Positions 18,089 through 41,065 of a stretch of DNA of 64,000 bases are shown piece after piece. Position 1 is the first letter of the stretch, and each line of letters opens with the position of its first letter. The stretch comes from Candidatus Rokuibacteriota bacterium. Its GTDB lineage: Bacteria > Methylomirabilota > Methylomirabilia > Rokubacteriales > CSP1-6. A model generated the notes under the pieces. That model was not told the origin of the DNA. It searched no databases and saw only the letters and a list, made by a program, of their open reading frames with translations. The position numbers were made by a program, and so were the translations under genes. The DNA is taken from the NCBI GenBank assembly GCA_016209385.1, contig JACQWB010000265.1:13977-77976 (forward strand). Reading direction: 5' to 3'.

Positions 18089-18158
18089 GGTGAGCTGGTG
18101 AGCTGAGACGGGGGCTGCGACACGAGACGAGTCAGCAGAGCGAAATTGCAAACTCTCT

Positions 18159-18192: not shown

Positions 18193-18218
18193 GAACAACC
18201 AAGGAGGAGAGCTTATCC

Positions 18219-19049: not shown

Positions 19050-19057
19050 GCAAGAAG

Positions 19058-19104: not shown

Positions 19105-19141
19105 TGAGCGGGACCAATGAGACAAGGAGGCAAGCGCGAAG

Positions 19142-19465: not shown

Positions 19466-19468
19466 TCC

Positions 19469-21206: not shown

Positions 21207-21546
21207 CGACCCGCTCGCCCTGGCCAACGCCCTGCAGGCGCTCACCGAAGCGCTGGTGCAGAGCCTGGAGGACGACGCGGGGGATCCCGCGTCCATCGTC
21301 GAGCGTCGGGCGGCTTTGCTGGGCGCTGCTTTCGAAGGACAACCCCTCGACGGGGACCGACGCGCTCAACTCCAGGCTGTTCGGGCCGCGGTTGAAGCGC
21401 TGGAACGATCCGCGCGTAGCACCCTCAGCCAGCGCATCGCCCAGACCAAGGCGGCCCTGATCGCCGTGGAGGCCGGCTGGACAGCGACCCGTACCTATCT
21501 CGAAGAGCGCGCGCTGCCGCCGCTCCTCCTGGATCGGCAAGAGTGA
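21199..21546 (+). CDS. Small all-helical hypothetical protein. It sits where a FliT/FlgN-like chaperone would be expected.
   Basis: 115 aa, helical and acidic. It overlaps the flaG stop by 8 nt and its stop overlaps the downstream GTG. Confidence 0.4.
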   Translation: MADDPLALANALQALTEALVQSLEDDAGDPASIVERRAALLGAAFEGQPLDGDRRAQLQAVRAAVEALERSARSTLSQRIAQTKAALIAVEAGWTATRTYLEERALPPLLLDRQE

Positions 21547-23525: not shown

Positions 23526-23555
23526 CGCGCGGCCGACGAGCCGCCCCATGGATCC

Positions 23556-25438: not shown

Positions 25439-25999
25439 TTAGCCGAGAATCGTCTCTACCGTCAGGCTGACGTCGCGGAAGGCTTCCAGGGAGATCGTTT
25501 CGCCGCGCGGGATCCGCCGGAAGTTTCGGTAGCCATCCGGCGTCGGGTCTCTATACTCTTCGACAGTTTCGGTTGAAAGGTCAACGAGCCACGCGTTGGG
25601 AATCCCCGCGCGAGCATACAGGGGAATCTTCACGGTTCGGTCAAACTCCACTGAGGTGTCCGCCACTTCGACCACAAGCCACACGTCCTCCGGTCCCGGG
25701 TGCGCCTGGGCATAGAAGTCAGGCCGGGGTCGAAGCAGGGCGAGGTCGGGCTGGGGTTCAGAGTGGAGACCAAGACCCAGAGGGCTTTGGACGGACACCG
25801 TGATCCGTTGACCGAGAAGCGAGTTGAACAGGTGACCCAGACGCCGTACGCACGCGGCATGGCGGGCGCCGATAGGGGTCATCTCAATTATCTCCCCTTC
25901 GATGAGCTCCACGCGATCATCTTCGGAGAAGACACCCGCCTGGCCCATCCGATGGTACTCCTCGACACTGAACCGGCGCCTGAGAAGCTGAACGTCCAT
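25439..25999 (-). CDS. Uma2-family (DUF820) putative restriction-endonuclease-like protein
   Basis: MDVQLLRRRFSVEEYHRMGQAGVF...RVELIEGEIIEM...PDLAL...VWLVVEV is the Uma2 signature. ATG at 25999 carries a purine-rich RBS; an alternative ATG lies at 26023. The track ORF is extended to 26095. Confidence 0.7.
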   Translation of the reverse strand: MDVQLLRRRFSVEEYHRMGQAGVFSEDDRVELIEGEIIEMTPIGARHAACVRRLGHLFNSLLGQRITVSVQSPLGLGLHSEPQPDLALLRPRPDFYAQAHPGPEDVWLVVEVADTSVEFDRTVKIPLYARAGIPNAWLVDLSTETVEEYRDPTPDGYRNFRRIPRGETISLEAFRDVSLTVETILG

Positions 26000-26091
26000 C
26001 GCCTTTTTCCTTGCTCCGACCATATGACGGAAAGAGAGGGTCGTCAAGTGTATCGGATCTGCTGCGCTCCAAGTTCTGTGGCTGACAGCAA

Positions 26092-26592
26092 TCATCCACC
26101 TTGTGGGCGGGCTAGGCGCTGGCGGACCAGCGCGGGGAGGTAGCCCGGGTCGGCAGCCGCGTCGGCTTTCGACACGAACTCGACGCCGGCGTGCCGGAGC
26201 TCCGGAGCCGGCGGCGCGTCACCCGTCACCACCATCACCGGCACGTCCCGGAGTCCCGACTCCTTGGCCATGGCTCCGATCAGATCCATTCCCGACCGGA
26301 GCGATCCCCCTTCCGGAACGCGGAGCCAGAGGTCCACGATCACGAGGGCGGGCCGGAGACGTCGGATCCCCTCGAGCCCGTCGTCGGCGGTGTCGCTCGA
26401 GGCGGTGCGGAAGCCCCCGCGCTGGAGAAAGAGCTGGAAGCAGCGGGCCAGCTCGGGATCGTCATCGATCACCAAGACCAACGGCGCGCCGTCCGGACCC
26501 TGTGGATCCCAGGGTCCCTGAGTCAGTTGCGACCCCTCACCATCGCGGTCCCTCACCCGTCGCGTGTCGCCCGGTCGTGAACCCGTCCTCAA
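26092..26592 (-). CDS. Single-domain response-regulator receiver (CheY-like), paralog of 28417..28872
   Basis: PLVLVIDDDPELARCFQLFLQRGGFRTASS...PALVIVDLWLR...VPVMVVTGD is the receiver fold, with an acidic pocket DDD and a phospho-acceptor D in IVDL. Confidence 0.65.
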   Translation of the reverse strand: MRTGSRPGDTRRVRDRDGEGSQLTQGPWDPQGPDGAPLVLVIDDDPELARCFQLFLQRGGFRTASSDTADDGLEGIRRLRPALVIVDLWLRVPEGGSLRSGMDLIGAMAKESGLRDVPVMVVTGDAPPAPELRHAGVEFVSKADAAADPGYLPALVRQRLARPQGG

Positions 26593-26648: not shown

Positions 26649-26677
26649 ATGCCCCGGCGAAGGGCATGAGATACAAT
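26649..26677 (+). promoter_or_regulatory. Candidate promoter/operator for the MNT-HEPN pair: palindrome ATGCCC-N7-GGGCAT, then a TACAAT -10-like hexamer
   Basis: atgccccggcgaagggcat at 26649..26667, and tacaat at 26672..26677, 14 nt before the ATG at 26691. Confidence 0.3.
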
Positions 26678-26690
26678 GCGGGGCAGCGCA

Positions 26691-27185
26691 ATGAGCCTTC
26701 TGCAAAGGTACGAGGATCTGCTGGAGCAGCTCTTGGTGGAAGTCACGGCCACCTACGGGCCCAGGCTGGTCGCGTGCGCCGTGTTCGGCTCCGTGGGGCG
26801 CGGCACGCCACGCGGCGACTCGGACATTGACCTCCTCCTCGTGGTGCGGGGCCTGCCGCGGGGCCGGCTCAAACGCGTGGAGGAGTTCCTGGTGGTCGAG
26901 AGCCGCCTCGATCCGGCGCTGAAGCCCGCGGAGCCCGGAGGCGCCCCGATTGGGCTCTCGCCCGTCTTCAAAACCCCCGAGGAGGTGGAAGCCGGCAGCC
27001 CACTGTTTCTCGACATGGTCGAGGACGCGAGGATCCTGTACGACCCCGAGGGCTTCTTGGCCGCGCATCTGGACCTGCTCCGTATCCGGCTTCGCGAGCT
27101 TGGCGCCCGACGGGTCCGCTCGGGGAACGCCTGGTACTGGGACCTCAAGCCGGACCTCAAGCCCGGCGAGGTGTTTACGCTGTGA
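26691..27185 (+). CDS. MNT-type minimal nucleotidyltransferase (antitoxin-like partner of HEPN)
   Basis: FGSVGRGTPRGDSDIDLLLVV is the GS-x9-DxD polymerase-beta nucleotidyltransferase motif. Start at the second in-frame ATG (26691; track 26676). Confidence 0.7.
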   Translation: MSLLQRYEDLLEQLLVEVTATYGPRLVACAVFGSVGRGTPRGDSDIDLLLVVRGLPRGRLKRVEEFLVVESRLDPALKPAEPGGAPIGLSPVFKTPEEVEAGSPLFLDMVEDARILYDPEGFLAAHLDLLRIRLRELGARRVRSGNAWYWDLKPDLKPGEVFTL

Positions 27186-27592
27186 CGAACCAGAGCCTCG
27201 CCCGGAGCTACCTGGTCAAAGCCCAGAAGCGACTCAAAGCCCTCGCGGTCCTTCGGGACGAGGGGGCGTACTCGGACGTCATCCGCGAGGCCCAGGAGCT
27301 GGTTGAGCTGGCCCTGAAGGGAATGCTTCGGGCGGCGGGCATCGAGCCGCCGAAGTTTCACGACGTCGGAGGACTGCTCCTCGAGCACGCGCGGAAGTTC
27401 TCCCAGGCGGCGCGTGAGCAGCTGCCCCGAACGCGCGTATCAGGATGCGGCGTGGGTGGTCACCCTCGCCAGCGAGGTGATCGAACCGAGGCAAGTCGGG
27501 ACTTGACAGCTCTGTTCCTGTCCCCTCCTGCCTACCGCGAGGGCCAGGTGGCCAGCCAGCGAACCCTAGGAAACCTTGGATGCACCGCCTGA
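27182..27592 (+). CDS. HEPN-domain protein (toxin-like partner of MNT). The C-terminal third may be frameshifted.
   Basis: ATGA overlap with the MNT gene. The helical N-terminal 85 aa (ARSYLVKAQKRLKALAVLRDEGAYSDVIREAQELVELALKGMLRAAGIEPPKFHDVGGLLLEH) are HEPN-like. The tail after REQLP is Gly/Arg-rich and overlaps the convergent PIN gene by 61 nt. Confidence 0.55.
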   Translation: MTNQSLARSYLVKAQKRLKALAVLRDEGAYSDVIREAQELVELALKGMLRAAGIEPPKFHDVGGLLLEHARKFSQAAREQLPRTRVSGCGVGGHPRQRGDRTEASRDLTALFLSPPAYREGQVASQRTLGNLGCTA

Positions 27593-27975
27593 TAGAACGG
27601 TTCATCCGCAGTAACCAAGTCCGCGTCCGTCGCAACGCTGAGGGCAAGGAAGAGCGCATCGTAGATGCTCTGCTGGTGCTCCAGGCCCAGGCGGTACGCC
27701 ATGGCAAGAAGGGGTAGACTCGGGACGATTTCGAACGGGATGGAGGCGAATGCCGAGAGAACGGCGGCTCCGTCCTCTGGATCAAGCCCCTCAAACATCA
27801 CGCGCTTCCAGACCACATTGGCGAACTCCGGATAGACGAGGTCTGGCCCCAGGGGGTGGTAGATGCCTGTCTGGAAGAGTTGACGGAGCCGGAGCGCTTG
27901 GTCCGAATAGGGTTCATCGAAGAACCACTTCACCGCCACGCTCGTGTCAACCGCCACACGTTGGACCGTGCTCAT
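27532..27975 (-). CDS. vapC: PIN-domain toxin VapC
   Basis: VAVDTSVAVKWFFDE carries the first acidic D of the PIN fold, with conserved D/E further on. 4-nt overlap with the upstream antitoxin. Confidence 0.75.
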   Translation of the reverse strand: MSTVQRVAVDTSVAVKWFFDEPYSDQALRLRQLFQTGIYHPLGPDLVYPEFANVVWKRVMFEGLDPEDGAAVLSAFASIPFEIVPSLPLLAMAYRLGLEHQQSIYDALFLALSVATDADLVTADEPFYQAVHPRFPRVRWLATWPSR

Positions 27976-28214
27976 CGCTGTCGGTCTTCCCGGAGGAGGG
28001 GAGCGCTGTCCTTAAACGTGCCGTACCCGGCTCGCAGTCGTTCCCTGAGGGTATCGACCATTTCCCACGCTGCCTGTGGGCCTTCGGGCCTTCCGAGAAC
28101 CTGTTCGAGGATCACCGCCGCTTCCTGGGTCACCGAGCGCCGGTTTCGCCTAGCACGCTTCTTTAGCCTTTGGTAGATCACTGCCGGAAGTGTCCGAATA
28201 TAAAGGGTCGCCAT
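27972..28214 (-). CDS. vapB: RHH (FitA/VapB-like) antitoxin
   Basis: MATLYIRTLPAVIYQRLKKRARRNRRSVTQEAAVILEQ matches the FitA-type plasmid-stability antitoxin N-terminus. GGAGGGG SD. Confidence 0.7.
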   Translation of the reverse strand: MATLYIRTLPAVIYQRLKKRARRNRRSVTQEAAVILEQVLGRPEGPQAAWEMVDTLRERLRAGYGTFKDSAPLLREDRQR

Positions 28215-28416: not shown

Positions 28417-28872
28417 TCACCCGCCAGCCTCGGCCCGCCGATCAGCCGGCGGCGACGCCAGTCGGCGTCGGACCAGATCGGGGAGGCGTGTTGGGTCGGC
28501 CGCGGCGGCGGCCTTCGCGACGAACTGAACCGCGCGGTCCCCGAACTGGTCGGGCTCCGGGACGTCGCCCGTCATGACGATCACGCGCAGGTCTCGGAGC
28601 GCTGGGTCCTCGCCGAGCGCCCGGATCAGGTCGGCCCCGGACTGGAGCGCCGCTCCCTCCCGGCTGCGGAGCCACAGGTCCACGATCGCGAGCGCCGGCC
28701 TGAGCGTCCGGATCCCGTCGAGGCCATCCGAGGCGGTCTCGGCGGACGCGGTCCGGAAGCCGCCCCGCTGGAGGAAGAGCTGGAAGCAGCGGGCCAGGTC
28801 CGCATCGTCCTCGACTAGGAAGACGAGCGGGGCACTCTCCGGGCCCTGGGCGATCCAGCGCGTCTGACTCAC
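28417..28872 (-). CDS. Single-domain response-regulator receiver (CheY-like), paralog of 26092..26592, translationally coupled to the lasso-cluster nucleotidyltransferase
   Basis: PLVFLVEDDADLARCFQLFLQRGGFRTASAETASDGLDGIRTLRPALAIVDLWLR. GTG start with a GGAGG SD 7 nt upstream, 13 nt after the stop of the upstream gene. The track ORF is extended to 28941. Confidence 0.65.
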   Translation of the reverse strand: MSQTRWIAQGPESAPLVFLVEDDADLARCFQLFLQRGGFRTASAETASDGLDGIRTLRPALAIVDLWLRSREGAALQSGADLIRALGEDPALRDLRVIVMTGDVPEPDQFGDRAVQFVAKAAAAADPTRLPDLVRRRLASPPADRRAEAGG

Positions 28873-28885
28873 GCGGCGACCTCCG

Positions 28886-30076
28886 TCAGCCGGGGTCTCC
28901 GGCCGCGCGGCGCCCGGGCGGGAGCAGCAGCGTCGTGGCACCCTTCGCGGCCTCCCGACCGAAGCCGCACACGCGGCGGGCGTACGCTGCGCCGAGCTGC
29001 CGTCTGCGGGTGAGCCCGTACTGCAGCAGCATGAATTCGGGCGACGGCGCGAGCAGGGCGAGCGCGTAACGGAGCTTCGCGCGGAGCCCCTTGAGGGCGA
29101 ACAGCATGCCCAGGCTCTCCACCCCGTCCACGCGCGACCCCTGGGCCAGCAGGCGAAGCAGCCGGCCCTCGAGCGATCGCGGACGTTCCAGCCTCAACCG
29201 ATCGAGGAGCGGATCCGGCATCGGCGTGGCAAAGAGTGCCCTCACCGTTCCCAGGACGCGCCCGAGAAGAAACTCGAGCCGCGTCTGGTGAGCGAGCGAC
29301 AGAAACCACGACCAGTCAACGAGGGCCGCCTCCCTGCGCAGGAGCTGATCGATCTCATAATACCAGAGCAGCGGGGCGGTCCCGTCCCGATGGGTCAGGT
29401 GAAGACAGAGGTGGAAGAGCAGCTCGTCCGCGGGGAGCACCCGGGTCTGGAGGCCGACAACCTGCCCTCCCAGGCACCGCGCCAAGAGCTGGTCCGTCTC
29501 CAGCCGGTCCACGAATGGCGGGTAGGTCAGCGTCCAGTGGGGCTCGACGATGATCCAGCCGTGACGGTCTTTGAAGAACTTGAGGGTGTAGGAGAAGGCC
29601 CGGGCGAAGCCCGGCCGGCGGTCCATCTCCGCAAATCCCAGGCTTCGGAGAAGCCCGCCCACGTCCGCCAGGTCCGCCTTCCTCACGAGGAGATCGATGT
29701 CCCCCATGGGGCGGGCCGTGATGTCGCCGTAGAGCCGCTCCGCCAGGGCCAGGCCCCGCAGCGGCGCGCACGCCAGCTTGCGCTCGTCGAAGGCCCTGAG
29801 GATGCTCGCCAGCTCGTCAGCCAGGATCAGGTTCCGGGCGGCAGAGCCGGCGGCCTGCGCTTCGAGCCGCTCCGCGAGCCCAGCCGGAAGCTGCCCGCCG
29901 ATCTCGGATCCCCTGAGCCGACGGTGGAGGAGCGGGGTGAATCCGTGCGTGGCTGCGTCGCTGACGATCGCTTCCCAGTCTGCCGGGGTCGGTGCGGGGA
30001 GCGTCGCGGGATCAGCGCCGCGAAGCAGTCCCATCAGGAAGGGGTGGACCATCAAGGCAGCCTCCGAAGCCCTCAT
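28886..30076 (-). CDS. PF14907-type nucleotidyltransferase-family protein, of the kind that often accompanies lasso-peptide clusters
   Basis: GDIDLLVRKADLADVGGLLRSLGF is a nucleotidyltransferase hG[GS]/DxD-like motif. 396 aa. 4-nt overlap with the upstream ABC gene. Confidence 0.65.
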   Translation of the reverse strand: MRASEAALMVHPFLMGLLRGADPATLPAPTPADWEAIVSDAATHGFTPLLHRRLRGSEIGGQLPAGLAERLEAQAAGSAARNLILADELASILRAFDERKLACAPLRGLALAERLYGDITARPMGDIDLLVRKADLADVGGLLRSLGFAEMDRRPGFARAFSYTLKFFKDRHGWIIVEPHWTLTYPPFVDRLETDQLLARCLGGQVVGLQTRVLPADELLFHLCLHLTHRDGTAPLLWYYEIDQLLRREAALVDWSWFLSLAHQTRLEFLLGRVLGTVRALFATPMPDPLLDRLRLERPRSLEGRLLRLLAQGSRVDGVESLGMLFALKGLRAKLRYALALLAPSPEFMLLQYGLTRRRQLGAAYARRVCGFGREAAKGATTLLLPPGRRAAGDPG

Positions 30077-31917
30077 CGCCGAACCTGCCCGGCGCCAGGG
30101 ACGCGCGACCGCTGGGGCCCGCAGTCTTCCCCGTGTTCACGCTCGGCGCCTTGCGCCTGCCACAGGGCGCGAAACCGCCCGCGCTCCCGCGCGATCAGAA
30201 TCCCCCAGGTTCCTGACTCCGCGAGGCGCCCGTCCTCGATCACGTAGATGATGTCGGCCTCCCGTACCGCGGAGAGCCGGTGGCTGATGACCACCAGTGT
30301 CAGCCTGCCGCGAAGGTTCCCCATCGCCTGTCGGATGCGTCGCTCGTTCTCAGAGTCCAGCGCGCTGACCGCTTCGTCCAGGATCAGGAGGCACGGCTTC
30401 CGGAGCAGCGCCCGGGCCAGGGCCAGACGCTGCCGTTCGCCCCCCGAGAGGAGCACGCCCCGATCGCCGACCATCGTGTCCAGTCCCTTCGGCAGTCTCG
30501 CCACGAACTCCTCGGCCGCTGCCAGGCTCAACGCCTCCCGGACCTCATCATCCGTCGCGCCTGGCGCCGCCCAGAGCAGGTTAGCGCGGACCGTGTCGTG
30601 GAAGAGAAAGGTCTCCTGGGTGACATAACCGATGCGGTCCCGCCAGGCTCCCACCCGCTCGGGAGTCAGCGGCACGCCGTCAACCAGCACGCGCCCGTCA
30701 TCGGGCGTGACCAGCCCGATGATCAGGTCGGCGATCGTGCTCTTGCCGCTCCCGGACGGGCCCACGATCGCGGTCGTCCGGCCGGCAGGAATACTCAGCT
30801 CGAGCTCGCGAATGACCGGGAGGCCGTCGTAGGCGAAGGAGACCCGATCCAGCCTGATGGCTGAGTTCAGCTCGACCGACTCGGCTCTGCGGGACCGGGG
30901 TTCCACCGCAGCCTCGCAGCGCCGCTGCATCTCCACGATCGACGCGAACGCCGGCAGCAGATTCACGAAGCTCTGATAGCTCTGCTGCACGCTGGCGAAC
31001 TTGGGCATCAGCCGTCCGAAGAGGAAGAGGAACAGGAGCAGCTCGGCGGCCGACAGGGCGAGCAGCTCGAGGGCCACGTACAGGATCGCGCTCAGGAGGC
31101 CCACCGAGCCGACCTCGAACCAGTACCTGACGTCAGCCTGGTTGCGGACGGCCCGCAGGTACATGTCCCGCACCCGCGCGCTGAGCCGCGCAAACAGCTC
31201 GGCGTGACGCTCCTCGGCCCCATAGCTCTTCGCGATCTTCATGCCGCCGAGATGCTCCGTCACGGCCGCGTACAAGTGGTTCGTCGCCTCGGAGAGCCCC
31301 TCGCCCGCCACGTGGGCCACCCGAGTCCGGCCCCTGAGCCCGACCATCAGCGCGACACCGCTGGCACAGATGACCGCTGTCATCATAAGCGAGAGCCTCA
31401 TCGCGAACCCGACATAGACAAGGACGACCACGGCGCTCGCCACCGAATGCAGCAGGCAGTGCGTCGCCCCGCCGACCCGTTCCACCTCGGCGGTCAGGAC
31501 ATGGGTGAAGTCCGCCGAGCGGCTCCGCGAAAAGAAGGGCCAGCTCGTATTAGCGATCGCCCGATAGAGCCGTGTCCGCAACGACGCCACAAACCCGTGC
31601 TCCACGCCGAGGCTGACGGTCGTCTGCCAGCGGGCCAGGAGCCCGTACAGGTTGACGATCAGCGCATAGGCGCCGAGCACGGCCACCAGGGTCGGGCCCA
31701 CGCCGGCCGCCGCAAAGATCGAGGAGACGAAGCGGGCGATCGCGCTCACGCCGCCCTGCTGAACATCCAGGCCGACGAGCTGGAGCAGCGGCACGAGCAT
31801 GAGGACCCCGATCCCTTCGGTCAGCCCCAGGCCGAGCATCAACCCGAGGGCCAGCGCGACCTTCCATCGCATCACGCCGACCAGGGTTGCCAGGTAGGAG
31901 CGGAAAGACTGGCGCAT
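30073..31917 (-). CDS. Fused TMD-NBD ABC exporter (lasso-peptide D protein, McjD-like)
   Basis: Walker A GPSGSGKST. ABC signature LSGGERQRLALARALL. Walker B LLILDEAVSALD. Six-helix N-terminal TMD. Confidence 0.85.
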   Translation of the reverse strand: MRQSFRSYLATLVGVMRWKVALALGLMLGLGLTEGIGVLMLVPLLQLVGLDVQQGGVSAIARFVSSIFAAAGVGPTLVAVLGAYALIVNLYGLLARWQTTVSLGVEHGFVASLRTRLYRAIANTSWPFFSRSRSADFTHVLTAEVERVGGATHCLLHSVASAVVVLVYVGFAMRLSLMMTAVICASGVALMVGLRGRTRVAHVAGEGLSEATNHLYAAVTEHLGGMKIAKSYGAEERHAELFARLSARVRDMYLRAVRNQADVRYWFEVGSVGLLSAILYVALELLALSAAELLLFLFLFGRLMPKFASVQQSYQSFVNLLPAFASIVEMQRRCEAAVEPRSRRAESVELNSAIRLDRVSFAYDGLPVIRELELSIPAGRTTAIVGPSGSGKSTIADLIIGLVTPDDGRVLVDGVPLTPERVGAWRDRIGYVTQETFLFHDTVRANLLWAAPGATDDEVREALSLAAAEEFVARLPKGLDTMVGDRGVLLSGGERQRLALARALLRKPCLLILDEAVSALDSENERRIRQAMGNLRGRLTLVVISHRLSAVREADIIYVIEDGRLAESGTWGILIARERGRFRALWQAQGAEREHGEDCGPQRSRVPGAGQVRR

Positions 31918-31918
31918 G

Positions 31919-32881
31919 TCAGAAGCGGCGGAGGTCCGACTCGAGCGCCGCGCGGACGGCCGGCAGCCGCGCGAGATCTCGCGGGAAGGCGAGGAGCCTG
32001 ACGGGAATCCGGGCGACGAGCCGCGCCGTCAGGTCGAACTGACGTGCGAGCCGTTCCGGTTCAACAATCACGGCGTTGAAGGTGTTCTTCAGCAGCGCGA
32101 GAAAGGCCTGGCGCGGAGCGAGCGGCCGGATCGTCACCCTTGCGCGTCGCGTATTCTGCGCCGGCGGCGTCAACACGTAGATCGCCTTCAGGGGCGCGGC
32201 GCCCAGCCAGGACATCTTCCACGCGAGCCGGATAACGAGTTTGGGCGTGAGGGGATTCATCGGGGTGCCCACGACCCCATCGCCGAACACGCGTTTGGCA
32301 ACCTCGGGAAAGAGCTTGATCCGTGGCGGGCCAGGCCACGCCCGGAAGCTGTGGCCGTTTTCTTCCACCACCAGGAGGTCGTCGGTCAGCAACGAATGCC
32401 CGGCCTGGAGAAAGGCCGCCCCAAGGCTCGACTTCCCGTAGCCGCAGTCGCCGACGAAGGCCACGGCCTTCCCGTCGACGACCACGACAGTCGCGTGGAG
32501 GGAATCGATGCCCTGCTTCAGGAGGGCGAACGAGAGGACCTGACCCAGCAGGTAGGTCTGAAACGCCTCGACGCTCCCGCCGTCGAGCGACCGGCCGGCG
32601 ATTCTACGCCCATCGGCCGAGATCACGAACTCGAACAGGCCCGACCATCGCAAATAACACGAGCCGTCGTCGAGCGACGCGTACCTGAACCAGGAAACGT
32701 CGTTCCGCTCGCCGCCGATCGTGCGATGGACTCGAGGGAAGAGCGATGCCGGTGCGCGGACCACCTCGGCGTCCACGCGGCCGCACCCGGCTACGCGACG
32801 ACACGGGAGCGGGATCACGCTCCGGACACTTAGCCCGTACGCCTGGTAGGCATACCGGCGTCTGGATCTCGACCGTGGCAC
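31919..32881 (-). CDS. HPr-kinase/phosphorylase-related kinase, a lasso-peptide tailoring kinase candidate
   Basis: P-loop VGDCGYGKSSLGAAFLQAGHSLLTDD matches the HprK C-terminal-domain Walker A. GTG start with an AGGAGG SD 5 nt upstream, immediately after the precursor ORF stop. Confidence 0.7.
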   Translation of the reverse strand: MPRSRSRRRYAYQAYGLSVRSVIPLPCRRVAGCGRVDAEVVRAPASLFPRVHRTIGGERNDVSWFRYASLDDGSCYLRWSGLFEFVISADGRRIAGRSLDGGSVEAFQTYLLGQVLSFALLKQGIDSLHATVVVVDGKAVAFVGDCGYGKSSLGAAFLQAGHSLLTDDLLVVEENGHSFRAWPGPPRIKLFPEVAKRVFGDGVVGTPMNPLTPKLVIRLAWKMSWLGAAPLKAIYVLTPPAQNTRRARVTIRPLAPRQAFLALLKNTFNAVIVEPERLARQFDLTARLVARIPVRLLAFPRDLARLPAVRAALESDLRRF

Positions 32882-32894
32882 CCCGGCCTCCTGA

Positions 32895-33044
32895 TTAACC
32901 TGTACCGGCCCTCGTCTTCGGGCCGGCCACGTTCGCCTCGCTCCTGTTCTTGGCCCCGCCCCTCGTGAGCGTTCGCAAGTCGCCGTAGCAGCGGAGTCGG
33001 GGCGGGGTGTACGGCTTTTTGGCCGGGCGGTTTAGCTTATTCAT
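32895..33044 (-). CDS. Candidate lasso-peptide precursor (A peptide), 49 aa, absent from the six-frame track
   Basis: Translation: MNKLNRPAKKPYTPPRLRCYGDLRTLTRGGAKNRSEANVAGPKTRAGTG*. The leader contains Y-T-P-P-R-L-R-C-Y-G (YxxPxLxxxG) and Thr at -2 (LTR|G). The core starts with Gly and has Glu8 as ring acceptor. GGGGGAG SD 8 nt upstream. It lies in the 164-bp gap between the cyclase and kinase genes. Confidence 0.6.
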   Translation of the reverse strand: MNKLNRPAKKPYTPPRLRCYGDLRTLTRGGAKNRSEANVAGPKTRAGTG

Positions 33045-33045
33045 C

Positions 33046-34923
33046 TCAACATCTCCCCCAGAATTTCTCGAGCCAGCGGTCCACGCTCACCAAGAACCAC
33101 ACCTCCCATCGAAGCTCCCTCTCCCCCCGGAGATAGCGGGTCACCAGCTCGTGCGCTCGCTCCAGGTCCACGTAGCGCCCCATCCGTCCCGAGCGATCCT
33201 CGAGCGGGGCGGGCGGATCACGGCGACAGAGAGCGGTCAGGTTTCGATCCATCGGATCGGTCCAGTCTCCCTTCCCCTGTCTCGACCGGATCGTGTCAGG
33301 CACGATCCCCTGCATCGATCGTCGCAAGATCCATTTTCGCTCGCCATCGCGCGTCCTCCGCTCCCAGGGGATCGAGAGGACGAACTCCACGAGCCGACTG
33401 TCCAGGAACGGATATCTGAGCTCCATGCCCCACCGGGCCACAGCCCGTTCGTCCACCTCGACCTTCAGGACATAGTAGGCCCCGGTCACGGAGACGTGTG
33501 TGTCAGCCTGGACGCAGGACGGGAACGGCAGCCGAACGCGCGGCTCGCGGATGCGCTCCCGCAGCCCGACCTCGCGGGCCAGGTGCGGGCGGATCCAGCT
33601 CGGTGGGGCGCGGCGGGCCGCCCGCTTGCCCCAGTACTTGAGCCGGGACGGGAGAAGGCTGGCGAGCGCCAGCTGGGCAAACTCCCACGGCTGGCCGCCG
33701 TACCAGCGGGCCAGCTCGCCGGTCTCGCGGATGAACCGTCCGGGCTTCAGCGTGCGCAGCAGATCGGCCAGGTAACCGATCTCGTCCAGGAGCTGGTCTC
33801 CACCGTCACCCGACAGGAGTACCCGGCACCCCCAGGCGTCAACCGACTCCAGCGAGGCGAGGCCGCTCTGGCGGTTCGCCGCGACGATCGGGCTCTCGAC
33901 CGACCAGAGGAGATCGTCAAGCCGGTAGAGCGGGTCGTCGTCCGACGCGTGGATCTCGTGCACCTTGACACCCGAGGCCCGGCCCACCGCCCGGACGTAC
34001 CGCCGCTCGTCAGAATCCGGGTGATCTGAAAAGAGCGTGAAGGCGTCCAGCGAGGGGGAGACCGCCCCGCCGTCGGCGAAGACCCGCGCGGCGGTACAGA
34101 CGATCGCCGACGAGTCCAGACCGCCGCTCACGAAGGCGCCGATCGGGAAGTCGCTGCGCGTGCGACACCTCACAGCCTCCGTGAAAAGGGAGCGGAAGTG
34201 CTCGGCGTATTCCTCGTCGCGGGCGTACCGGGTCTCCCGTGGCGGATCGACGGCCCAGTAACGCTCGATCCAAAGGCGTCCCTCCTCGAGCACGAGGAGG
34301 TGGCCGGGCGGGAGCCGATGGATTCCGCGGAAGAAGGTCCGCGCGTGATCCCCCTCCCGGAACTCCCTGAGCAAAAAGGCCAGGATCATCTCGTCGTCAG
34401 GTTCCGGCATCCGGTCAAGAACGGCGAGAATGGGCTTCGTCTCCGAGCTGATCAGCAGGGTGACGCCGTCCCACGTGTAGTGAAGCGGTTTGAGCCCGAG
34501 CCGGTCTCTCGCACAGAGAAGCCTCCCCCTTCGGCCATCCCAGAGCGCGAACGCAAACTCCCCGATGATTCTTCCCAGGGCGCCCGCTCCCCACTGCCTG
34601 TACGCCTCCAGCGTCAGCTCAGGATCGGTCTGACCCGAAAGCGGACGTCGCTCCGCCTTCAGGGCTGCGATCAGTTCCTCCCGGTTGTCGAGCCGGCCAT
34701 CCCAGACCAGCCGGCACGTGCCCTGGGAGTCAACCACTGGCTGCTCCTCGTGGAGAGACTCCGGGGTCGTGTAGAGGAGCCGATGAGCCAGCCCGACTGG
34801 CCCGCTCACCCACCGGCCCTCGCCATCGGGGCCCCGATGGGCCATGGCCCCCGACATCCGCTCCAGGAGACTCGGATCCACGGCCAGTCCGTAAGCGTGA
34901 CAGATCCCCACAAGCCCGCTCAT
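33046..34923 (-). CDS. Asparagine-synthetase-like lasso cyclase (C protein), copy 2
   Basis: Class-II amidotransferase and AsnB synthetase domains (SGGLDSS PP-loop). The N-terminus is MSGLVGICH: the nucleophilic Cys2 of true AsnB (compare MCGIAG at 48164) is replaced by Ser, as expected for lasso cyclases. Confidence 0.8.
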   Translation of the reverse strand: MSGLVGICHAYGLAVDPSLLERMSGAMAHRGPDGEGRWVSGPVGLAHRLLYTTPESLHEEQPVVDSQGTCRLVWDGRLDNREELIAALKAERRPLSGQTDPELTLEAYRQWGAGALGRIIGEFAFALWDGRRGRLLCARDRLGLKPLHYTWDGVTLLISSETKPILAVLDRMPEPDDEMILAFLLREFREGDHARTFFRGIHRLPPGHLLVLEEGRLWIERYWAVDPPRETRYARDEEYAEHFRSLFTEAVRCRTRSDFPIGAFVSGGLDSSAIVCTAARVFADGGAVSPSLDAFTLFSDHPDSDERRYVRAVGRASGVKVHEIHASDDDPLYRLDDLLWSVESPIVAANRQSGLASLESVDAWGCRVLLSGDGGDQLLDEIGYLADLLRTLKPGRFIRETGELARWYGGQPWEFAQLALASLLPSRLKYWGKRAARRAPPSWIRPHLAREVGLRERIREPRVRLPFPSCVQADTHVSVTGAYYVLKVEVDERAVARWGMELRYPFLDSRLVEFVLSIPWERRTRDGERKWILRRSMQGIVPDTIRSRQGKGDWTDPMDRNLTALCRRDPPAPLEDRSGRMGRYVDLERAHELVTRYLRGERELRWEVWFLVSVDRWLEKFWGRC

Positions 34924-36815
34924 GACTTACCTCTTCGTTCTGAGTTCCACTCGGGAAACCACTGCCGGAGCCACACCTCCAGCCTTGCGAAATTCCACAA
35001 GAGGTTCCGATGTCGCCCCTGCGTCCACACGTAGCGCTCCCGGAGCCGTTCGGCTTCCCGGCGGCTGACGTAGCGAAAGACCCGCCCGTCGGAACCGAAC
35101 AGGTCGCGCTCCAGCCGCTTCGCCTCCAGCTCAGTGGGCAGCCGGCCATTCATCACTGGGACGAACTGCGCGACCTCTTCGCGTTGCCTCACCGGCGCGA
35201 TGGCCGCCAGCGCGCGCTGGACGAACTGCTTTCGATAGCCGGGTGCCAGCGTCACGGCCGACGGCACGGCGAGGAAGAATTCCACCAGCCGTCGGTCCAG
35301 GTACGGGTGGCGGCACTCCAGCGAGAAGGCTGAGACCATCCCGTCCATCTGGTTCAGCGCGAGCGCCATCGCCGGTCGCGTGAGCGCGCGGTAGGTGGTT
35401 TCCTGGCACAGCGTCGGGAATCTCCGCCGCTCCCTCGGCATCGTCCACCGGTCCAGCCCGACCCGCGTGGCAAACTCGGCGTCGATCCAGCGGGGGAGCT
35501 GGCGCTTCACCCCAGCCCTGAAGAGCCGGCGGAGTCCAGGCGGAAATTGATCCCAGACGAGCGCCAGGACGGTCCGCCCGGAGCCAGTTCCGCCGTAGGC
35601 CGTCGAGCTGAGCCGGGCATGCCGGACCAGCGTTCCGAGCTGGAGCGAATGGAGAAGGTCCGCAAGATACCCCGCCTCGGCACGCTGGCTCAACTCGTCC
35701 GCTCCAAACCCTGTCAGCAGGACCCGGCAGCCCCGCGCCGCCGCCGGCCCGACGAGCGCCGGAATCGTGAGGGCAGGATCGTGGTGAGGGGTCTCGGCGC
35801 AGTCGAGGAAGAGCTCGAACAACGTGATCGGCCCGTCCGCTCCCTCAGGACGAACGAAGTGGACCTCGGTGCCGTATCTCCTGGCCAGGTGCTGGATCGC
35901 GTCCCACTCCTCCTGCAGGAACCCTTCGGCCAGCAGGGTGAACGCCGCCAGTTCGGGAACGCCCACATCCGCCAGCCGGAGCGTCTCTGCCGTCGCAGTG
36001 ACTAACGTCGAGTCGATTCCTCCGCTGAGCAGCAGTCCCACCGGCGAGCAGCTCCGGAGACGGCAGCGCACCGCCTCGCGGAAGAGCGCTGCGAACGCCT
36101 CGAGATAGTCCTCTTCCTTCGCGTACCGGGCCTGACGCGACGGATCCACGTCCCAGTAGCGCTCGATCGAGAGACCTGAGTCTGCCAGGCGAAGGACGTG
36201 GCCCGGTCTCAACTGCTTGATCCCCTCAAAGAAGGTCGCCTCGGGGTCGCGAAAGCCCATCAGGAGGTAATCGGCGATCATCGCCTCGTTTGGCCGCCTG
36301 GCGATCGCCGGATCGGCGAACAGCGCCTTCACCTCCGAGCCAAAGAGGAGCCGCTGGCCGGCCCAGTGGTAGTAGAAGGGTTTGACCCCGATCGGGTCTC
36401 GCGCGCACACGAGCTCCCGCCGTCTGCCGTCCCAGAGCGCGAACGCGAACTCGCCGACGATCCGCCTCACGCAGCCCGCGCCCCACTGCCCGTAGGCCTC
36501 CAGAACCAGCTCAGGATCGGTCAATCCTTCCTGATCGTGTCGGTCGATCTTCAGCGCCGCGATCAGCTCCTCACGGTTGTCGACCCGCCCATCCCAGGCG
36601 AGCTGGCAGGTCCCGTGAGCGTCCGCCAGCGGCTGCTTCTCGTGGAGCGACTCCGGGGTGGTGTGGAGCATCCGATGGCCCAGCCCGACCGGCCCTGCCA
36701 CCCACTGGCCCTCGCCGTCCGGGCCGCGATGCGCGAGGATGTCGGTCATGCGCTGGAGGAGCGCCGGGTCGGCCGGGCGCCCACCGCTGTGACAGATTCC
36801 GGCAATCGCGCTCAT
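34920..36815 (-). CDS. Asparagine-synthetase-like lasso cyclase (C protein), copy 1
   Basis: MSAIAGICH N-terminus (Cys2 replaced by Ser). SGGIDST PP-loop. 631 aa. ATGA overlap with copy 2. Confidence 0.8.
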   Translation of the reverse strand: MSAIAGICHSGGRPADPALLQRMTDILAHRGPDGEGQWVAGPVGLGHRMLHTTPESLHEKQPLADAHGTCQLAWDGRVDNREELIAALKIDRHDQEGLTDPELVLEAYGQWGAGCVRRIVGEFAFALWDGRRRELVCARDPIGVKPFYYHWAGQRLLFGSEVKALFADPAIARRPNEAMIADYLLMGFRDPEATFFEGIKQLRPGHVLRLADSGLSIERYWDVDPSRQARYAKEEDYLEAFAALFREAVRCRLRSCSPVGLLLSGGIDSTLVTATAETLRLADVGVPELAAFTLLAEGFLQEEWDAIQHLARRYGTEVHFVRPEGADGPITLFELFLDCAETPHHDPALTIPALVGPAAARGCRVLLTGFGADELSQRAEAGYLADLLHSLQLGTLVRHARLSSTAYGGTGSGRTVLALVWDQFPPGLRRLFRAGVKRQLPRWIDAEFATRVGLDRWTMPRERRRFPTLCQETTYRALTRPAMALALNQMDGMVSAFSLECRHPYLDRRLVEFFLAVPSAVTLAPGYRKQFVQRALAAIAPVRQREEVAQFVPVMNGRLPTELEAKRLERDLFGSDGRVFRYVSRREAERLRERYVWTQGRHRNLLWNFARLEVWLRQWFPEWNSERRGKS

Positions 36816-36824
36816 CTCACTGGC

Positions 36825-37268
36825 TCACCGCGAATGGAACAGCGGCTCATATCGCCCGGCCTCCTGACCGCCGAGGATCGGCTCGCCGGCGTAATCGAGC
36901 CAGGCGTGTGCCCTGAGCTTCCCCTCCTCGCGCGACACGCCGATCCGCAAGGCTGTCGGGATGCCCCACCGCCCGAGGAGCCACGAGAGGACGAGCGCCT
37001 TTTTCAGGCAGGTGGGGTTGACCGGCGCGTACCGGCCGGCAACCTCCACGAGCCAGACCACGCGAGCCAGGGATGCGGGGCGGCCCGAGGCCGGGGTCGC
37101 ACCCGTCGTGCGGGAGAGCTTCCGGTGGAGCCCCAGCAGCCGCTTGAAGCTCAGGACTCTCAGCGCCAGCTCCACGAGGAGAAAGAGCCCCCAGGCCTCG
37201 GCGAGGATGGCCCGCTCGCCGGGAGGGAGCCGGAATAAATTCCGCAGCCGCTCACTCAACGATTTCAA
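36825..37268 (-). CDS. Lasso-peptide B2 protein (transglutaminase-like cysteine protease)
   Basis: CLKKALVLSWLLGRWGIPTALRIGV...LRAHAWL carries the conserved Cys...His catalytic pair of the McjB C-terminal domain. 147 aa. Confidence 0.75.
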   Translation of the reverse strand: MKSLSERLRNLFRLPPGERAILAEAWGLFLLVELALRVLSFKRLLGLHRKLSRTTGATPASGRPASLARVVWLVEVAGRYAPVNPTCLKKALVLSWLLGRWGIPTALRIGVSREEGKLRAHAWLDYAGEPILGGQEAGRYEPLFHSR

Positions 37269-37551
37269 CTAAGTCGTTCTCCCGCAGTCGCGTGATGAAC
37301 TGGAGCAGATCGTCCGTGCAGCGTGGCTCCGCGACCGCGTACTCCTCCAGGAGCGCGTCACGCACCGCGCGCAGCGAGGCGTGCTCCCGGACGAGTTGCC
37401 AGATCCGCGTACCGGCCGGATCCAGGCCGAAGTAGACGCCGGTCTCGAGATTGAGGATGACGATCTCGCCCCCCAGATCGTGAAAGACGACGTCGTCTCG
37501 GATCCGGACTCGAGATGCGAGCGACAGTTCTCTCGCCAGCGCGGCACTCAT
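37252..37551 (-). CDS. Lasso-peptide B1 protein (PqqD-like RRE leader-recognition domain)
   Basis: MSAALARELSLASRVRIRDDVVFHDLGGEIVILNLETGVYFGLDPAGTRIWQLV is a PqqD-family fold. 99 aa. The start codon overlaps the stop of the upstream WecA-like gene. The track shows this only as the tail of a longer ORF. Confidence 0.7.
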   Translation of the reverse strand: MSAALARELSLASRVRIRDDVVFHDLGGEIVILNLETGVYFGLDPAGTRIWQLVREHASLRAVRDALLEEYAVAEPRCTDDLLQFITRLRENDLVEIVE

Positions 37552-38702
37552 CACAATAGCCTCCCCTTTCGCTCCAGGATCGTGAGGATCAGGAAGATGC
37601 TGAGGGCCTGGCAGAGCAGCAGGAAGGCGGAGAGCGCGGACGCCATCAGGAGGACCGTCGCCCCCACGCTGAGGCAGATGCTCAGCGCGTAGATCAACAG
37701 CACCGCGTGCTCTCGCCGCCCCAAGAGGTGCTCCATGCGGTGGTGGAGGTGGTCCCGCCCCACGTACTCGATCCATCCCCGGACGCCCTTCACCTTCCCC
37801 GAGACCACGCGATCCACGGTGATGTAGATCATGTCGTAGATGAACACGCCAAAGATGAGAATCGGCGCGGCCAGGTCCACGATCGTGTTCTCGGCCCACT
37901 CTCCCATCACGGCCAGCGACGCCAGCACGAACCCCAGGAAATTGGCCCCGGCGTCTCCCAGGAAGATCGTGGCGCGATCGCCCGGACGGAAATTGTAGGG
38001 GAGGAACCCGAGGGTGCTCCCGAGCAGAGCCGCCGCGACCCATCCGAGGAACACCTGCTGGCTCTGGTAGGCGATGATCCCCAGGAAGAAGGCGGCGATG
38101 GCGGCCAGGCCGGGAGCCAGGCCGTCCATCCCGTCCAGGAAGTTCATGGCGTTGGTGAGCCCCACGATCCAGAGGATGGTCAGGAAGATATTCAGCGCCT
38201 GCCCCCAGAGGGCACGGGTCGGAAACAGCGTCAGCGAGATCCCCGAGGCGATGACGATCCCTGTCGCGAGCAGCATGATGGCCAGCTTGAAGACAGCAGG
38301 GAGCGGGCGGACGTCGTCGACGCGGCTGATACAGATCACCAGTGTCCCGCCGGTCAGCAACCCCCAGAGGGCCGGCGTCAGGATCGAGTTCGCCAGCAGG
38401 CTGATCAGGAAGGCGAGATAGATCGCGACCCCGCCCAGCAGCGGAATCGGCTCGCCGTGGAGCTTCCGCGAATCCGGCCGGTCAACGATCCCCATCGCCA
38501 GCGCGAAGGCTCGAACCGGCCTGACCAAGAGGAAGGAGAGGAGGAACGAGAACAGGACGATGTAGAGCCACCTCAACCCTTCCTGGAAGAAGAAGCTCTT
38601 CACCGGGAAAAGGAAGAGCAGGAGCAACACGACGACGCCCAGGAGATACAGGAGCTGCCCCGCCGGGAGGGAGATCGTCGAGACACGAATGGCGGATCTC
38701 AC
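37551..38702 (-). CDS. WecA/MraY-family (GT4 polyprenyl-phosphate HexNAc-1-phosphate) initiating transferase
   Basis: Ten or more TM helices. Cytoplasmic loop motifs DDVxxL-like (ISRVDDVRPL) and NxxNxxDGxDGL (NAMNFLDGMDGLA). Confidence 0.8.
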   Translation of the reverse strand: MRSAIRVSTISLPAGQLLYLLGVVVLLLLFLFPVKSFFFQEGLRWLYIVLFSFLLSFLLVRPVRAFALAMGIVDRPDSRKLHGEPIPLLGGVAIYLAFLISLLANSILTPALWGLLTGGTLVICISRVDDVRPLPAVFKLAIMLLATGIVIASGISLTLFPTRALWGQALNIFLTILWIVGLTNAMNFLDGMDGLAPGLAAIAAFFLGIIAYQSQQVFLGWVAAALLGSTLGFLPYNFRPGDRATIFLGDAGANFLGFVLASLAVMGEWAENTIVDLAAPILIFGVFIYDMIYITVDRVVSGKVKGVRGWIEYVGRDHLHHRMEHLLGRREHAVLLIYALSICLSVGATVLLMASALSAFLLLCQALSIFLILTILERKGRLL

Positions 38703-40373: not shown

Positions 40374-41065
40374 CCGACTCCCCTCCCTTGCCTGAGAACA
40401 GAAAGACTCTGCGAACCGCAGTTGAACAACAGGTCCACGACAGAAAGGTTCGGCTCGAAGGGCCCGAATCGCTGGGGATACGCCGGACATCGAAAGTCCT
40501 GGAAGGCGAGCCGGATCCCCGCGTCGGCGAAGCGCTGGCGGTCCAGGTAGTCCAGCCCCCCGCATCCGGAGAGATAGGTGTCCCCCCCGAGAGCCTGACA
40601 GATCGCGATCAGCCGCTCGGTCTTCCCCTCCGCTTCACGAAGCGCCAGGGAAGAAGCCGGGACCAGCTTCGTCTGGATCCCGAGCGCGTCGACCAGATAC
40701 CCGAGGGTCTCGAGGGCCAGATCGATGAGCTGCGCCCACTGCCGGGAATAGACCTCCTCGAAGAACGCCCGGTGGGTTTCGAAGAACGGGGCGGCTGCGT
40801 AATTCAGGACCAGCGCCTGGAGGTGCTTCCGCGACCAGCGTGCGCGGTTGTTCACCCCGACCTCGGAAATCGCCTGGGGGAAGCGATGAAGGACGGGCAC
40901 GGTGAGCCACTGCCAGCCGGCGGCTGTCTTGATCCGGTTCCGGTTCTGCCACTCGTTCTTCTTGAACTGGACATGGTCGAGGAGCACGAAGCAGTCGGCT
41001 CGATCCATCTTGTCGAAGTAGCCCAGCCAGGGCAGGTACTGGGGCTGGTGCACCGCCACCTTCAT
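40370..41065 (-). CDS. WbqC-family protein (O-antigen-cluster protein of unknown function)
   Basis: MKVAVHQPQYLPWLGYFDKMDRADCFVLLDHVQFKKNEWQNRNRI is the characteristic WbqC N-terminus. Confidence 0.7.
   Translation of the reverse strand: MKVAVHQPQYLPWLGYFDKMDRADCFVLLDHVQFKKNEWQNRNRIKTAAGWQWLTVPVLHRFPQAISEVGVNNRARWSRKHLQALVLNYAAAPFFETHRAFFEEVYSRQWAQLIDLALETLGYLVDALGIQTKLVPASSLALREAEGKTERLIAICQALGGDTYLSGCGGLDYLDRQRFADAGIRLAFQDFRCPAYPQRFGPFEPNLSVVDLLFNCGSQSLSVLRQGRGVG

Follow-up and report, generated by a model that had tools for sequence, protein, structure and literature searches.

Lasso peptides whose clusters encode both a kinase and a nucleotidyltransferase have been characterised in only a few Firmicutes and Proteobacteria, and their role is stated to be unknown (PMC13381572). 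In the paeninodin cluster of Paenibacillus dendritiformis (padeA-C-B1-B2-D-K) and its Bacillota kin, split B1 and B2 proteins and an Asn-synthetase-like cyclase are accompanied by an HprK-like kinase that acts on the precursor, an ABC exporter and, in many members, a nucleotidyltransferase (PMC8498205). The characterised kinases of paeninodin, pseudomycoidin and Sphingobium target a C-terminal Ser (PMC8498205), but BsfK of Bradymonas sediminis phosphorylates Ser3 (PMC10368454), so the phosphorylation site can vary. Stimulation of the kinase by B1 and kinase action on the linear precursor have both been shown for homologues (PMC10368454, PMC8498205). In Bacilli, paeninodin-like lasso clusters and linear phosphopeptide clusters sit in capsular polysaccharide loci and are co-expressed with an eps gene; the roles of the paeninodin-like clusters are again given as unknown (PMC13381572). 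Here we describe a cluster of this kind on a 64,000-nt stretch of DNA (the window, to whose positions all coordinates refer unless a related locus is named) from a metagenome-assembled genome (MAG) of Candidatus Rokuibacteriota (Candidatus Rokubacteria, Methylomirabilota). The literature searched contained nothing relevant on lasso peptides from Rokubacteria.

We consider it likely that the locus is a complete and probably functional class II paeninodin-type (phosphorylated/glycosylated) lasso cluster, which is transcribed as the tail of an exopolysaccharide operon of the Wzx/Wzy type of about 35 kb. Its genes are listed in Table 1: a precursor (A), B1 and B2, two cyclase paralogues (C1 and C2), a kinase (K), an exporter (D) and a nucleotidyltransferase-fold enzyme (N). 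What the analysis shows is the gene content, the precursor anatomy, the conservation of cluster and precursor across phyla, intact catalytic motifs in K and C2 and a recurrent linkage to polysaccharide genes.

All the genes named above for the paeninodin kin are found in the window as well, and the kin, too, are often embedded in capsular-polysaccharide loci (PMC13381572). The window differs from paeninodin in its gene order (B1-B2-C1-C2-A-K-D-N), its two cyclases and its host, an uncultured phylum of the Gram-negative type; moreover, paeninodin carries its phosphate on a C-terminal Ser, whereas the core in the window ends in Gly and its conserved hydroxyl is the internal Thr16. Pseudomycoidin (psm, Bacillus pseudomycoides) shares the kinase and a PF14907-type N, and its product bears a hexose on the phosphate. 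It is the best precedent for the predicted chemistry of K followed by N, although it has a C-terminal Ser as acceptor, a single cyclase, a Firmicute host and an N whose function was shown in vivo only. The Bsf cluster has the same kinase motif and spacing, phosphorylation away from the C-terminus, stimulation of the kinase by B1, a YxxPxL leader, a Gly1-Asp8 ring and an N gene; its site is Ser3 inside the ring, position -2 is Ile and there is one cyclase, whereas the window keeps Thr(-2) and has a ring without a conserved hydroxyl. Clusters for linear polyphosphorylated peptides (LPP) of Bacillota share the HprK-like kinase, an NTP transferase, a recognition element for peptides that are made on ribosomes and modified after translation (RiPPs), an MsbA-like exporter and co-localisation with capsule genes, but they lack a cyclase and B2 and have a SipW-like signal peptidase, whereas the window has the full lasso machinery. 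The 'HPr-rel-A system' of NCBIfam supplies the best model for K (TIGR04352, 38.5 bits against a cut-off of 200) and a weak match to B1 (TIGR04353, 20.6 against 35), so that the cluster is a distant relative of that system and not a member.

An earlier note, made from the DNA letters, had proposed an eight-gene minus-strand lasso system followed by a receiver. We examined it with a six-frame and open reading frame (ORF) listing and with Pfam and NCBIfam profile searches of the window proteins, scores being given in bits against the curated cut-offs. All the proposed ORFs are present and profile support extends throughout: PF05402, PF13471, PF00733 and PF14907 match B1, B2, both cyclases and N as had been assigned, and the kinase and the 49-aa precursor hold up as well, the one by its profile matches and a BsfK-like motif, the other by exact leader spacing and homologues in most related loci. 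A kinase-containing cluster of the paeninodin type, as a known kind, is thus confirmed by gene content and relatives. For both cyclases the top NCBIfam match is the lasso cyclase model NF033535, yet at scores below its cut-off.

Table 1. Features of the window discussed in the text, with the profile matches on which their names rest
Feature	Position	Strand	Matches and remarks
WecA/MraY-family polyprenyl-phosphate HexNAc-1-phosphate transferase (GT4)	37551..38702	-	PF00953 118.9 bits; TIGR02380 ECA_wecA 119 bits, below cut-off
B1, PqqD-like RiPP recognition element	37252..37551	-	PF05402 62.9 bits (cut-off 23.4); NF033536 lasso_PqqD_Bac 62.9 (cut-off 80)
B2, transglutaminase-like Cys leader peptidase	36825..37268	-	NF033537 lasso_biosyn_B2 90.4 bits (cut-off 33); PF13471 78.7 bits
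C1 (C-up), cyclase paralogue	34920..36815	-	PF00733 132.8 bits and GATase_7; NF033535 458 bits (cut-off 525)
C2 (C-down), predicted lasso cyclase	33046..34923	-	PF00733 197.3 bits and GATase_7; NF033535 455 bits (cut-off 525)
A, 49-aa precursor	32895..33044	-	NF033521 lasso_leader_L3 18 bits (cut-off 19)
K, HprK-related P-loop peptide kinase	31919..32881	-	PF07475 25.9 bits (cut-off 33.3); TIGR04352 HprK_rel_A 38.5 bits
D, ABC half-transporter	30073..31917	-	ABC_membrane and ABC_tran
N, PF14907 nucleotidyltransferase-fold enzyme	28886..30076	-	PF14907 166.7 bits
Stand-alone CheY-like receiver	28417..28872	-	PF00072 33.3 bits (cut-off 30.2)
Third Asn-synthetase homologue	46296-48164	-	Glutaminase Cys (MCGIAG), Asn74 and Glu76 kept; XrtA/PEP-CTERM amidotransferase TIGR03108 585 bits (cut-off 817)
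488-aa protein	41062-42528	-	No Pfam match; weak CehA/McbA metallohydrolase match
HD_5 (HD-GYP-like) gene	62197-63294		
Receiver paralogue	26092-26592	-	59% identical to the first receiver
Two toxin-antitoxin pairs	26676-27185, 27182-27592; 27532-27975, 27972-28214	+, +; -, -	MNT-like nucleotidyltransferase with HEPN; PIN VapC with FitA-like RHH antitoxin
Uma2 endonuclease gene	25439-26095	-	Overlaps second receiver by 4 nt
783-aa ORF	22977-25328	-	No Pfam match; may be spurious
Hybrid histidine kinase	21543-23525	+	PAS-HATPase-receiver
Flagellar genes	18014-20911		FliD at 19469-20911
Second glycan island	112-17455	+	
Methyltransferase/GT1/GT2/TPR fusion, 1681 aa	112-5157		In second glycan island
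Sulfotransferase	15355-16278		In second glycan island

Nine consecutive minus-strand ORFs of the 28417-37551 region, the precursor included, are all intact in the ORF listing, and the genes are tightly packed. At 37551 the stop codon TGA of GT4 and the start codon of B1, an ATG preceded by GGAGG, have one base in common, which bears out the stop/start overlap with a WecA-like gene that had been reported for the beginning of the cluster, at the tail of a polysaccharide operon. C1 and C2 overlap by 4 nt, the C2 stop is one base away from the precursor ATG, and a gap of 13 nt lies between the precursor stop and the GTG of the kinase (AGGAGG ahead of it), as it does between the N stop and the GTG of the receiver (GGAGG ahead of it). 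Shine-Dalgarno sequences resembling GGAGG precede the starts at the junctions examined, the one upstream of the precursor being GGGGGAGA. Third-position GC is 0.83–0.91 in the larger ORFs, which are therefore real genes; B1 and the precursor (<100 aa) were left out of this separate scoring. No convincing terminator or promoter was found inside the cluster: the sole weak terminator-like match (37207-37188) lies within B2, and there were 4 such matches overall compared to a mean of 6.8 in shuffled sequence, i.e. fewer than in the shuffles. GenBank names B2 'lasso peptide biosynthesis B2 protein', B1 'PqqD family protein' and both cyclases 'asparagine synthase', and K is 100% identical to the hypothetical protein HY726_19995 of a Candidatus Rokubacteria MAG, encoded on an 89.7-kb contig. 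The starts chosen for B1, B2 and the receiver yield proteins identical to MBI4611282.1, MBI4611281.1 and MBI4611275.1, respectively, while the 49-aa precursor has no GenBank entry.

The precursor consists of a leader of 28 residues, MNKLNRPAKKPYTPPRLRCYGDLRTLTR, and a core (residues 29–49), GGAKNRSEANVAGPKTRAGTG. When Gly29 is counted as core residue 1, Y12, P15, L17 and T27 fall exactly at -17, -14, -12 and -2, the spacing documented for lasso leaders that B1 recognises (PMC10368454). The core starts with GGAKNRSE, so that Gly1 and Glu8 give a predicted ring with a 13-residue tail, and ends in AGTG, with Gly rather than Ser as last residue. A homologous precursor with the leader consensus KKPYxxPxLxxYGDLRxLTx occurs in 75 of 85 loci, and the 10 loci without one are mostly truncated contigs; Asp or Glu is found at core position 7–9 in 67 of 81 unique related cores. 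On these grounds the 49-aa ORF reads as a canonical lasso precursor with a Gly1-Glu8 ring. For the predicted product (core minus H2O) the monoisotopic mass is computed as 1980.02 Da; one phosphate would raise it to 2059.99 Da, and a phosphate plus a hexose to 2222.04 Da. Since two cyclases might have implied a second precursor, we searched the whole window in six frames, and only the 49-aa ORF fits. Some single-cyclase relatives do have tandem precursors with differing cores (L038, 9611-9781 and 9796-9957; L044, 9173-9373 and 9652-9891; L049, 9161-9331 and 9638-9889; L numbers denote related loci). With two precursors in single-cyclase loci and one each in dual-cyclase loci, cyclase number does not track precursor number.

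An alignment of 18 kinase homologues shows no variation at H129, G144, G147, G149, K150, S151, D167 and D168, and the spacing of these residues is identical to that of H148-G163-G166-G168-K169-S170-D186-D187 in BsfK, where the catalytic motif residues matter by mutagenesis (PMC10368454). The kinase therefore looks competent. It was also considered as a bona fide HPr kinase/phosphorylase (HprK/P), and this assignment is not borne out, given sub-cut-off scores (25.5 bits against 240 for TIGR00679) and a partial match to the catalytic domain, as PF07475 is covered only from position 8 to 59 of 171. In the PDB, K has only weak HprK P-loop matches (E ~4e-4 over ~50 residues).

Because the core has no C-terminal Ser, which is present in just 8 of 81 related cores, the phosphate acceptor site must differ from that of paeninodin. 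The ring of the dual-cyclase subgroup contains no conserved hydroxyl. The conserved feature is instead a Thr or Ser of the tail with basic residues next to it. Downstream of the ring acid, mostly 6–9 residues off, [ST][KR] occurs in 51 of the 81 cores; the others come mostly from Terriglobia-type loci, where the ending ...[KR]-T-(H/x) is frequent. In the window the conserved tail hydroxyl is Thr16, within PKTR. As the hydroxyl that is best conserved across the family, in a K-T-[KR] context, it is the predicted phosphate acceptor. The Terriglobia/Acidobacteriota loci just mentioned, which are more distant relatives, have a different architecture, K-B2-B1-C-A with a divergently transcribed N (L032, L034-L036, L050, L052, L056, L060, L063, L066, L070, L072, L074, L078, L080 and L087), and their Thr at or near the C-terminus takes an intermediate place between paeninodin's C-terminal Ser and the internal Thr that is seen in the clade of the window.

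The two cyclases are 43% identical. Tandem cyclases were also found in L007, L014, L018, L019, L023, L028, L040, L048 and L058, and probably in L041, where the contig is truncated; duplicated cyclases, which the earlier note had taken to set this cluster apart, thus recur in about 10 related loci. In a neighbour-joining tree of 74 sequences, with the 46296-48164 Asn synthetase as outgroup, the first genes of the dual loci form one clade (C-up) and the second genes its sister clade (C-down). This implies a single old duplication that has been kept across MAGs assigned to several phyla. Literature searches returned no report of a lasso cluster with two cyclases.

Both C1 and C2 have kept the SGGxDS PP-loop and have lost the glutaminase residues (Cys1 to Ser, Asn74 to Asp, Glu76 to Arg); the 46296-48164 protein, which retains them, is a true amidotransferase. 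All single-cyclase relatives (WKADF) and every intact C-down protein (GKGDW) have a Lys, shared also by the Asn synthetase of the polysaccharide operon (PKRGF), that is missing from all 8 C-up members compared (the fragmentary L041 sequence was excluded). In an alignment to 1CT9, the lost Lys corresponds to Lys449 of E. coli AsnB, one of the residues contacting the β-aspartyl-AMP intermediate (PMC4659947). In the same 8 members Gln replaces an Arg that is invariant elsewhere and that C2 keeps, and a hydrophobic residue stands at the equivalent of AsnB Glu348. Bona fide lasso cyclases can have His, Glu, Asp, Ala or Val at the latter position, which was therefore dropped as a diagnostic residue and is treated as supporting only. 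An exhaustive search of 1.84 billion representative proteins gave 12 best sequences scoring 760–399 bits, followed by others at ~385 and below; the combination of Gln and no Lys was found in 15 of the 150 best representatives, almost all of them top-scoring, and the PP-loop is intact in all 15. The C-up clade is ~50% identical across MAGs of different phyla and has invariant residues of its own. The closest relative of C2 is in L008, where C-down is the sole cyclase of the cluster. C2 is thus predicted to be the cyclase that catalyses formation of the isopeptide bond between Gly1 and Glu8, as it has kept the PP-loop, the Arg and the Lys449 equivalent, and C-down is all that L008 has. C1, which lacks that Lys and has Val there, is probably a conserved accessory partner that does not adenylate or catalyse. 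The cores of the dual-cyclase subgroup are characterised by Gly1, by Glu8 rather than Asp8 and by a K-[T/S]-[K/R] tail.

A candidate triad of Cys87, His121 and Asp125 was placed in B2 by motif only. N contains the motif GDIDLL (DxD) in its translation, and a PDB search found no solved structure for it. Its homologue PsmN adds a hexose to the phospho-Ser of pseudomycoidin (PMC8498205), and by analogy N is predicted to glycosylate the peptide phosphate. The label 'McjD-like', given to the exporter before, is not specifically supported: the best PDB matches of D are ABCB1, ABCB4, ABCB19, Sav1866 and MsbA, and the 60 matches listed, out of 308, do not include McjD. By these matches D is a generic half-transporter of the MsbA/Sav1866/ABCB type, and its recurrent position near K and N makes it the probable exporter of the peptide. 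L008 encodes a PF14907 nucleotidyltransferase fused to a methyltransferase domain and a stand-alone second N (6142-7710 and 9605-10789), which flank the ABC exporter; the fusion hints at further tailoring by methylation in the clade.

Homologues of the kinase are numerous, with more than 1,531 in a metagenomic protein collection (best non-self match 67% identical) and at least 220 species-level genomes in a scan of one genome per species. We compared the loci of the best 80 of the 220 genome relatives, all of them MAGs from soil and groundwater phyla, plus further loci. The best 80 belong to Methylomirabilota/Rokuibacteriota, Nitrospirota, Acidobacteriota, Gemmatimonadota, Desulfobacterota, Chloroflexota, Verrucomicrobiota and Binataceae, with one from Bacillota. 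The window proteins were then compared by BLAST with the six-frame ORFs of every locus. Fifty non-redundant loci extend at least 6 kb beyond K in both directions; among these, a cyclase lies no more than 6 kb from K in 50, B1 in 43, B2 in 39, N in 35 and an ABC exporter in 18. Gene calls and Pfam matches give the order B1-B2-C-A-K-N in the closer relatives, and in most of these the precursor lies directly upstream of the kinase; its place between cyclase and kinase, also proposed as a peculiarity, is their commonest order. Judged by these neighbours, the cluster is one of many paeninodin-like clusters with kinase and nucleotidyltransferase that form a large, uncharacterised clade in uncultured Methylomirabilota, Nitrospirota, Acidobacteriota and Gemmatimonadota.

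Upstream of the cluster, on the same strand and almost without gaps, lies a Wzx/Wzy-type locus of ~26 kb. It starts with an AAA_22 ATPase, HD_5, a Wzz-GNVR-tyrosine kinase-SPOR protein and Wzy_C, continues with five GT1/GT4-family glycosyltransferases and one GT2, two CDP-alcohol phosphatidyltransferases and methyltransferases, and ends with a Wzx flippase, the true Asn synthetase, WbqC, PIG-L, a DegT aminotransferase and the WecA-like initiating enzyme. The gene of the latter (GT4 in Table 1), with which the polysaccharide genes end, shows translational coupling to B1 and is counted as part of the context rather than of the lasso machinery. The best NCBIfam matches of the locus are XrtA/PEP-CTERM families, all below cut-off (TIGR03015 140.8/324.5, TIGR03108 585/817, TIGR03018 137.6/230.7), and there was no exosortase among the window proteins scanned. 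The 488-aa protein has a counterpart, 62% identical, at the same position in the polysaccharide locus of L005.

Of the 84 related loci, 29 have a polysaccharide homologue no more than 10 kb away, and 14 have a Wzz/tyrosine-kinase gene. In L005, L006 and L011 the series AAA_22-GT1-(488-aa protein)-WbqC-PIG-L-DegT-GT4 is kept at 57–70% identity, with a GT4/B1 overlap (ATGA). In L038 (Verrucomicrobiota), GT1-GT1-AsnS-GT4 abuts B1 at ~30–35% identity, the gap between GT4 and B1 being at most ~33 nt (the start is uncertain). In L003/L004, L009, L008 and L045 it is the opposite flank of the cluster that carries AAA_22/HD_5, either with Wzz-SPOR or without it. Linkage to exopolysaccharide genes, the third supposed peculiarity, therefore recurs and had already been reported for Bacilli (PMC13381572); the association is not new in kind and is here extended to distant phyla. 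Three of the four differences from the paeninodin type that had been claimed are thus traits of the clade, and the fourth, the receiver, is not conserved: exceptionality was overstated, while the cluster itself is confirmed. PilZ-domain genes adjoin some related clusters (L001, 12413-12793; L002, 6451-6831; L005, 18439-19080) and HD_5 genes occur in the associated polysaccharide loci, which suggests control of the neighbourhood by cyclic di-GMP.

A plausible pathway can be drawn from these parts. B1 would bind the YxxPxL leader, and K, aided by B1, would phosphorylate the linear precursor at core Thr16. B2 would then cut after Thr(-2)-Arg(-1), and C2 would adenylate Glu8 and close the Gly1-Glu8 macrolactam around the tail, with Lys15, Arg17 and the modified Thr16 as plugs. 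C1 would serve as a non-catalytic partner or scaffold, N would put a sugar on the phosphate and D would export the peptide. Co-expression with polysaccharide genes suggests that the role of the peptide is tied to capsule or biofilm production and that it is not a free-standing antibiotic.

Several points speak against a complete phospho-lasso cluster joined to a polysaccharide operon. The product is known here from its genes, the host is uncultured, and homologous clusters such as Bsf are hard to express (PMC10368454). For the kinase and the cyclases, the closest named models give scores that do not reach the curated cut-offs. The Thr16 site is drawn from conservation, with Ser7 and Thr20 as alternative acceptors, and the core contains neither of the known acceptor types (C-terminal Ser, Ser3). 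The ATP PP-loop of C1 is intact, so C1 might still be catalytic. Only the window and L008 have polysaccharide-locus neighbours within the dual-cyclase subclade, the enrichment of polysaccharide genes is a raw count without a genome-wide null, and the L005-type arrangement may in part be inherited synteny.

It is conceivable, though rather unlikely in our view, that this is an ordinary cluster for a secreted antimicrobial or signalling peptide whose place after the polysaccharide operon is an accident or inherited synteny. No polysaccharide homologue was found within 10 kb in 55 of 84 related loci at the thresholds used, nor in the dual-cyclase loci L007, L014, L028 and L048; besides, the cluster carries its own exporter, and the window is generally rich in glycan genes, a separate island included. 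Mere accident is harder to reconcile with GT4/B1 junctions that are overlapping in the window and in L005 and at most ~33 nt apart in L038, despite the divergence of these loci from the window. Rare markers (Wzz/tyrosine kinase, AAA_22 plus HD_5) also stand beside the clusters in several arrangements, upstream or downstream, and the association was reported independently for Bacilli (PMC13381572). Decay of the cluster into a non-functional remnant, with the duplicated cyclase as a pseudogene in the making, seems highly improbable. The loss in C1 of a residue conserved in all other cyclases and the models scoring below cut-off would fit such decay, but all nine ORFs are intact, with high third-position GC (0.83–0.88), Shine-Dalgarno sequences and coupled junctions, and the ~50% identity and private invariant residues of C-up across phyla indicate purifying selection.

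C1 could also be a second active enzyme, one that makes a second isopeptide or other amide bond or amidates the C-terminus, and the product would then be bicyclic or doubly processed. We regard this as unlikely: all 8 C-up members lack the Lys that contacts the acyl-adenylate and have a hydrophobic residue at the Glu348 equivalent, the glutaminase residues of C1 are gone (Cys1, Asn74 and Glu76 being Ser, Asp and Arg) and the dual-cyclase cores offer no second conserved acidic residue. In its favour, C1 is full length, keeps its PP-loop and is maintained in many lineages, and Asn-synthetase-like enzymes of other RiPP pathways amidate or nitrilate C-termini (PMC13060819). The residue preceding the tail Thr/Ser is Lys in 10 of 10 dual-cyclase loci and His in the single-cyclase locus L008, so that a bond from this invariant Lys to the C-terminal carboxylate can be imagined. 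A more far-reaching idea, to which we give only a small chance, is that the phospho-lasso peptide is no antibiotic but works solely within the polysaccharide pathway. The phosphate on Thr16, once N has extended it, might act as acceptor, cap or anchor of the glycan made by the upstream operon, a chemical analogy to the polyprenyl phosphate on which the WecA-like enzyme works; or the peptide might control capsule or biofilm assembly. In both versions C1 would be a pseudo-enzyme chaperone of the pre-lasso fold. If this were true, paeninodin-type lasso peptides would gain a physiological function conserved from Bacilli to Methylomirabilota.

Being well preserved, the paeninodin-type cluster described here can stand for a large clade, as yet untouched, with a strongly conserved precursor and a different predicted phosphorylation site. 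As the capsule association seen in Bacilli extends to distant phyla, a role in biofilm or capsule formation becomes a testable hypothesis, and a conserved second cyclase without the Lys is a tractable entry into how lasso cyclases fold their substrate.

Judged by eye from its translation, the receiver at the end of the cluster has residues that suit an acidic pocket, an Asp as candidate acceptor and also the conserved Thr and Lys. The 13-nt gap after N agrees with the coupling proposed earlier, and the receiver is probably co-transcribed with the cluster. Its membership in the lasso system is doubtful, and we regard it as lineage-specific context: no homologue was found next to the relatives in 84 related loci (E<1e-6), and it was therefore rejected as a core lasso component. 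Its paralogue lies 1.8 kb downstream, and two toxin-antitoxin pairs stand between the two genes. This looks like a duplication that was split by insertion of the toxin-antitoxin genes. Beyond the second receiver follow a Uma2 endonuclease gene and a 783-aa ORF that overlaps the gene for a hybrid histidine kinase; the latter, a few kb from the orphan receivers, is a possible partner for them.

A second set of glycan genes, on the opposite strand and beside flagellar genes, occupies the beginning of the window. The sulfotransferase encoded there was considered as a paeninodin-type sulfotransferase and rejected, being 12 kb off, on the other strand and in a separate glycan/flagellar island. Besides the large methyltransferase/GT1/GT2/TPR fusion, this island encodes a TPR-GT2 protein, a hexapeptide acyltransferase, a transketolase-like protein, DUF4915 and an epimerase, and it resembles a flagellin-glycosylation island.

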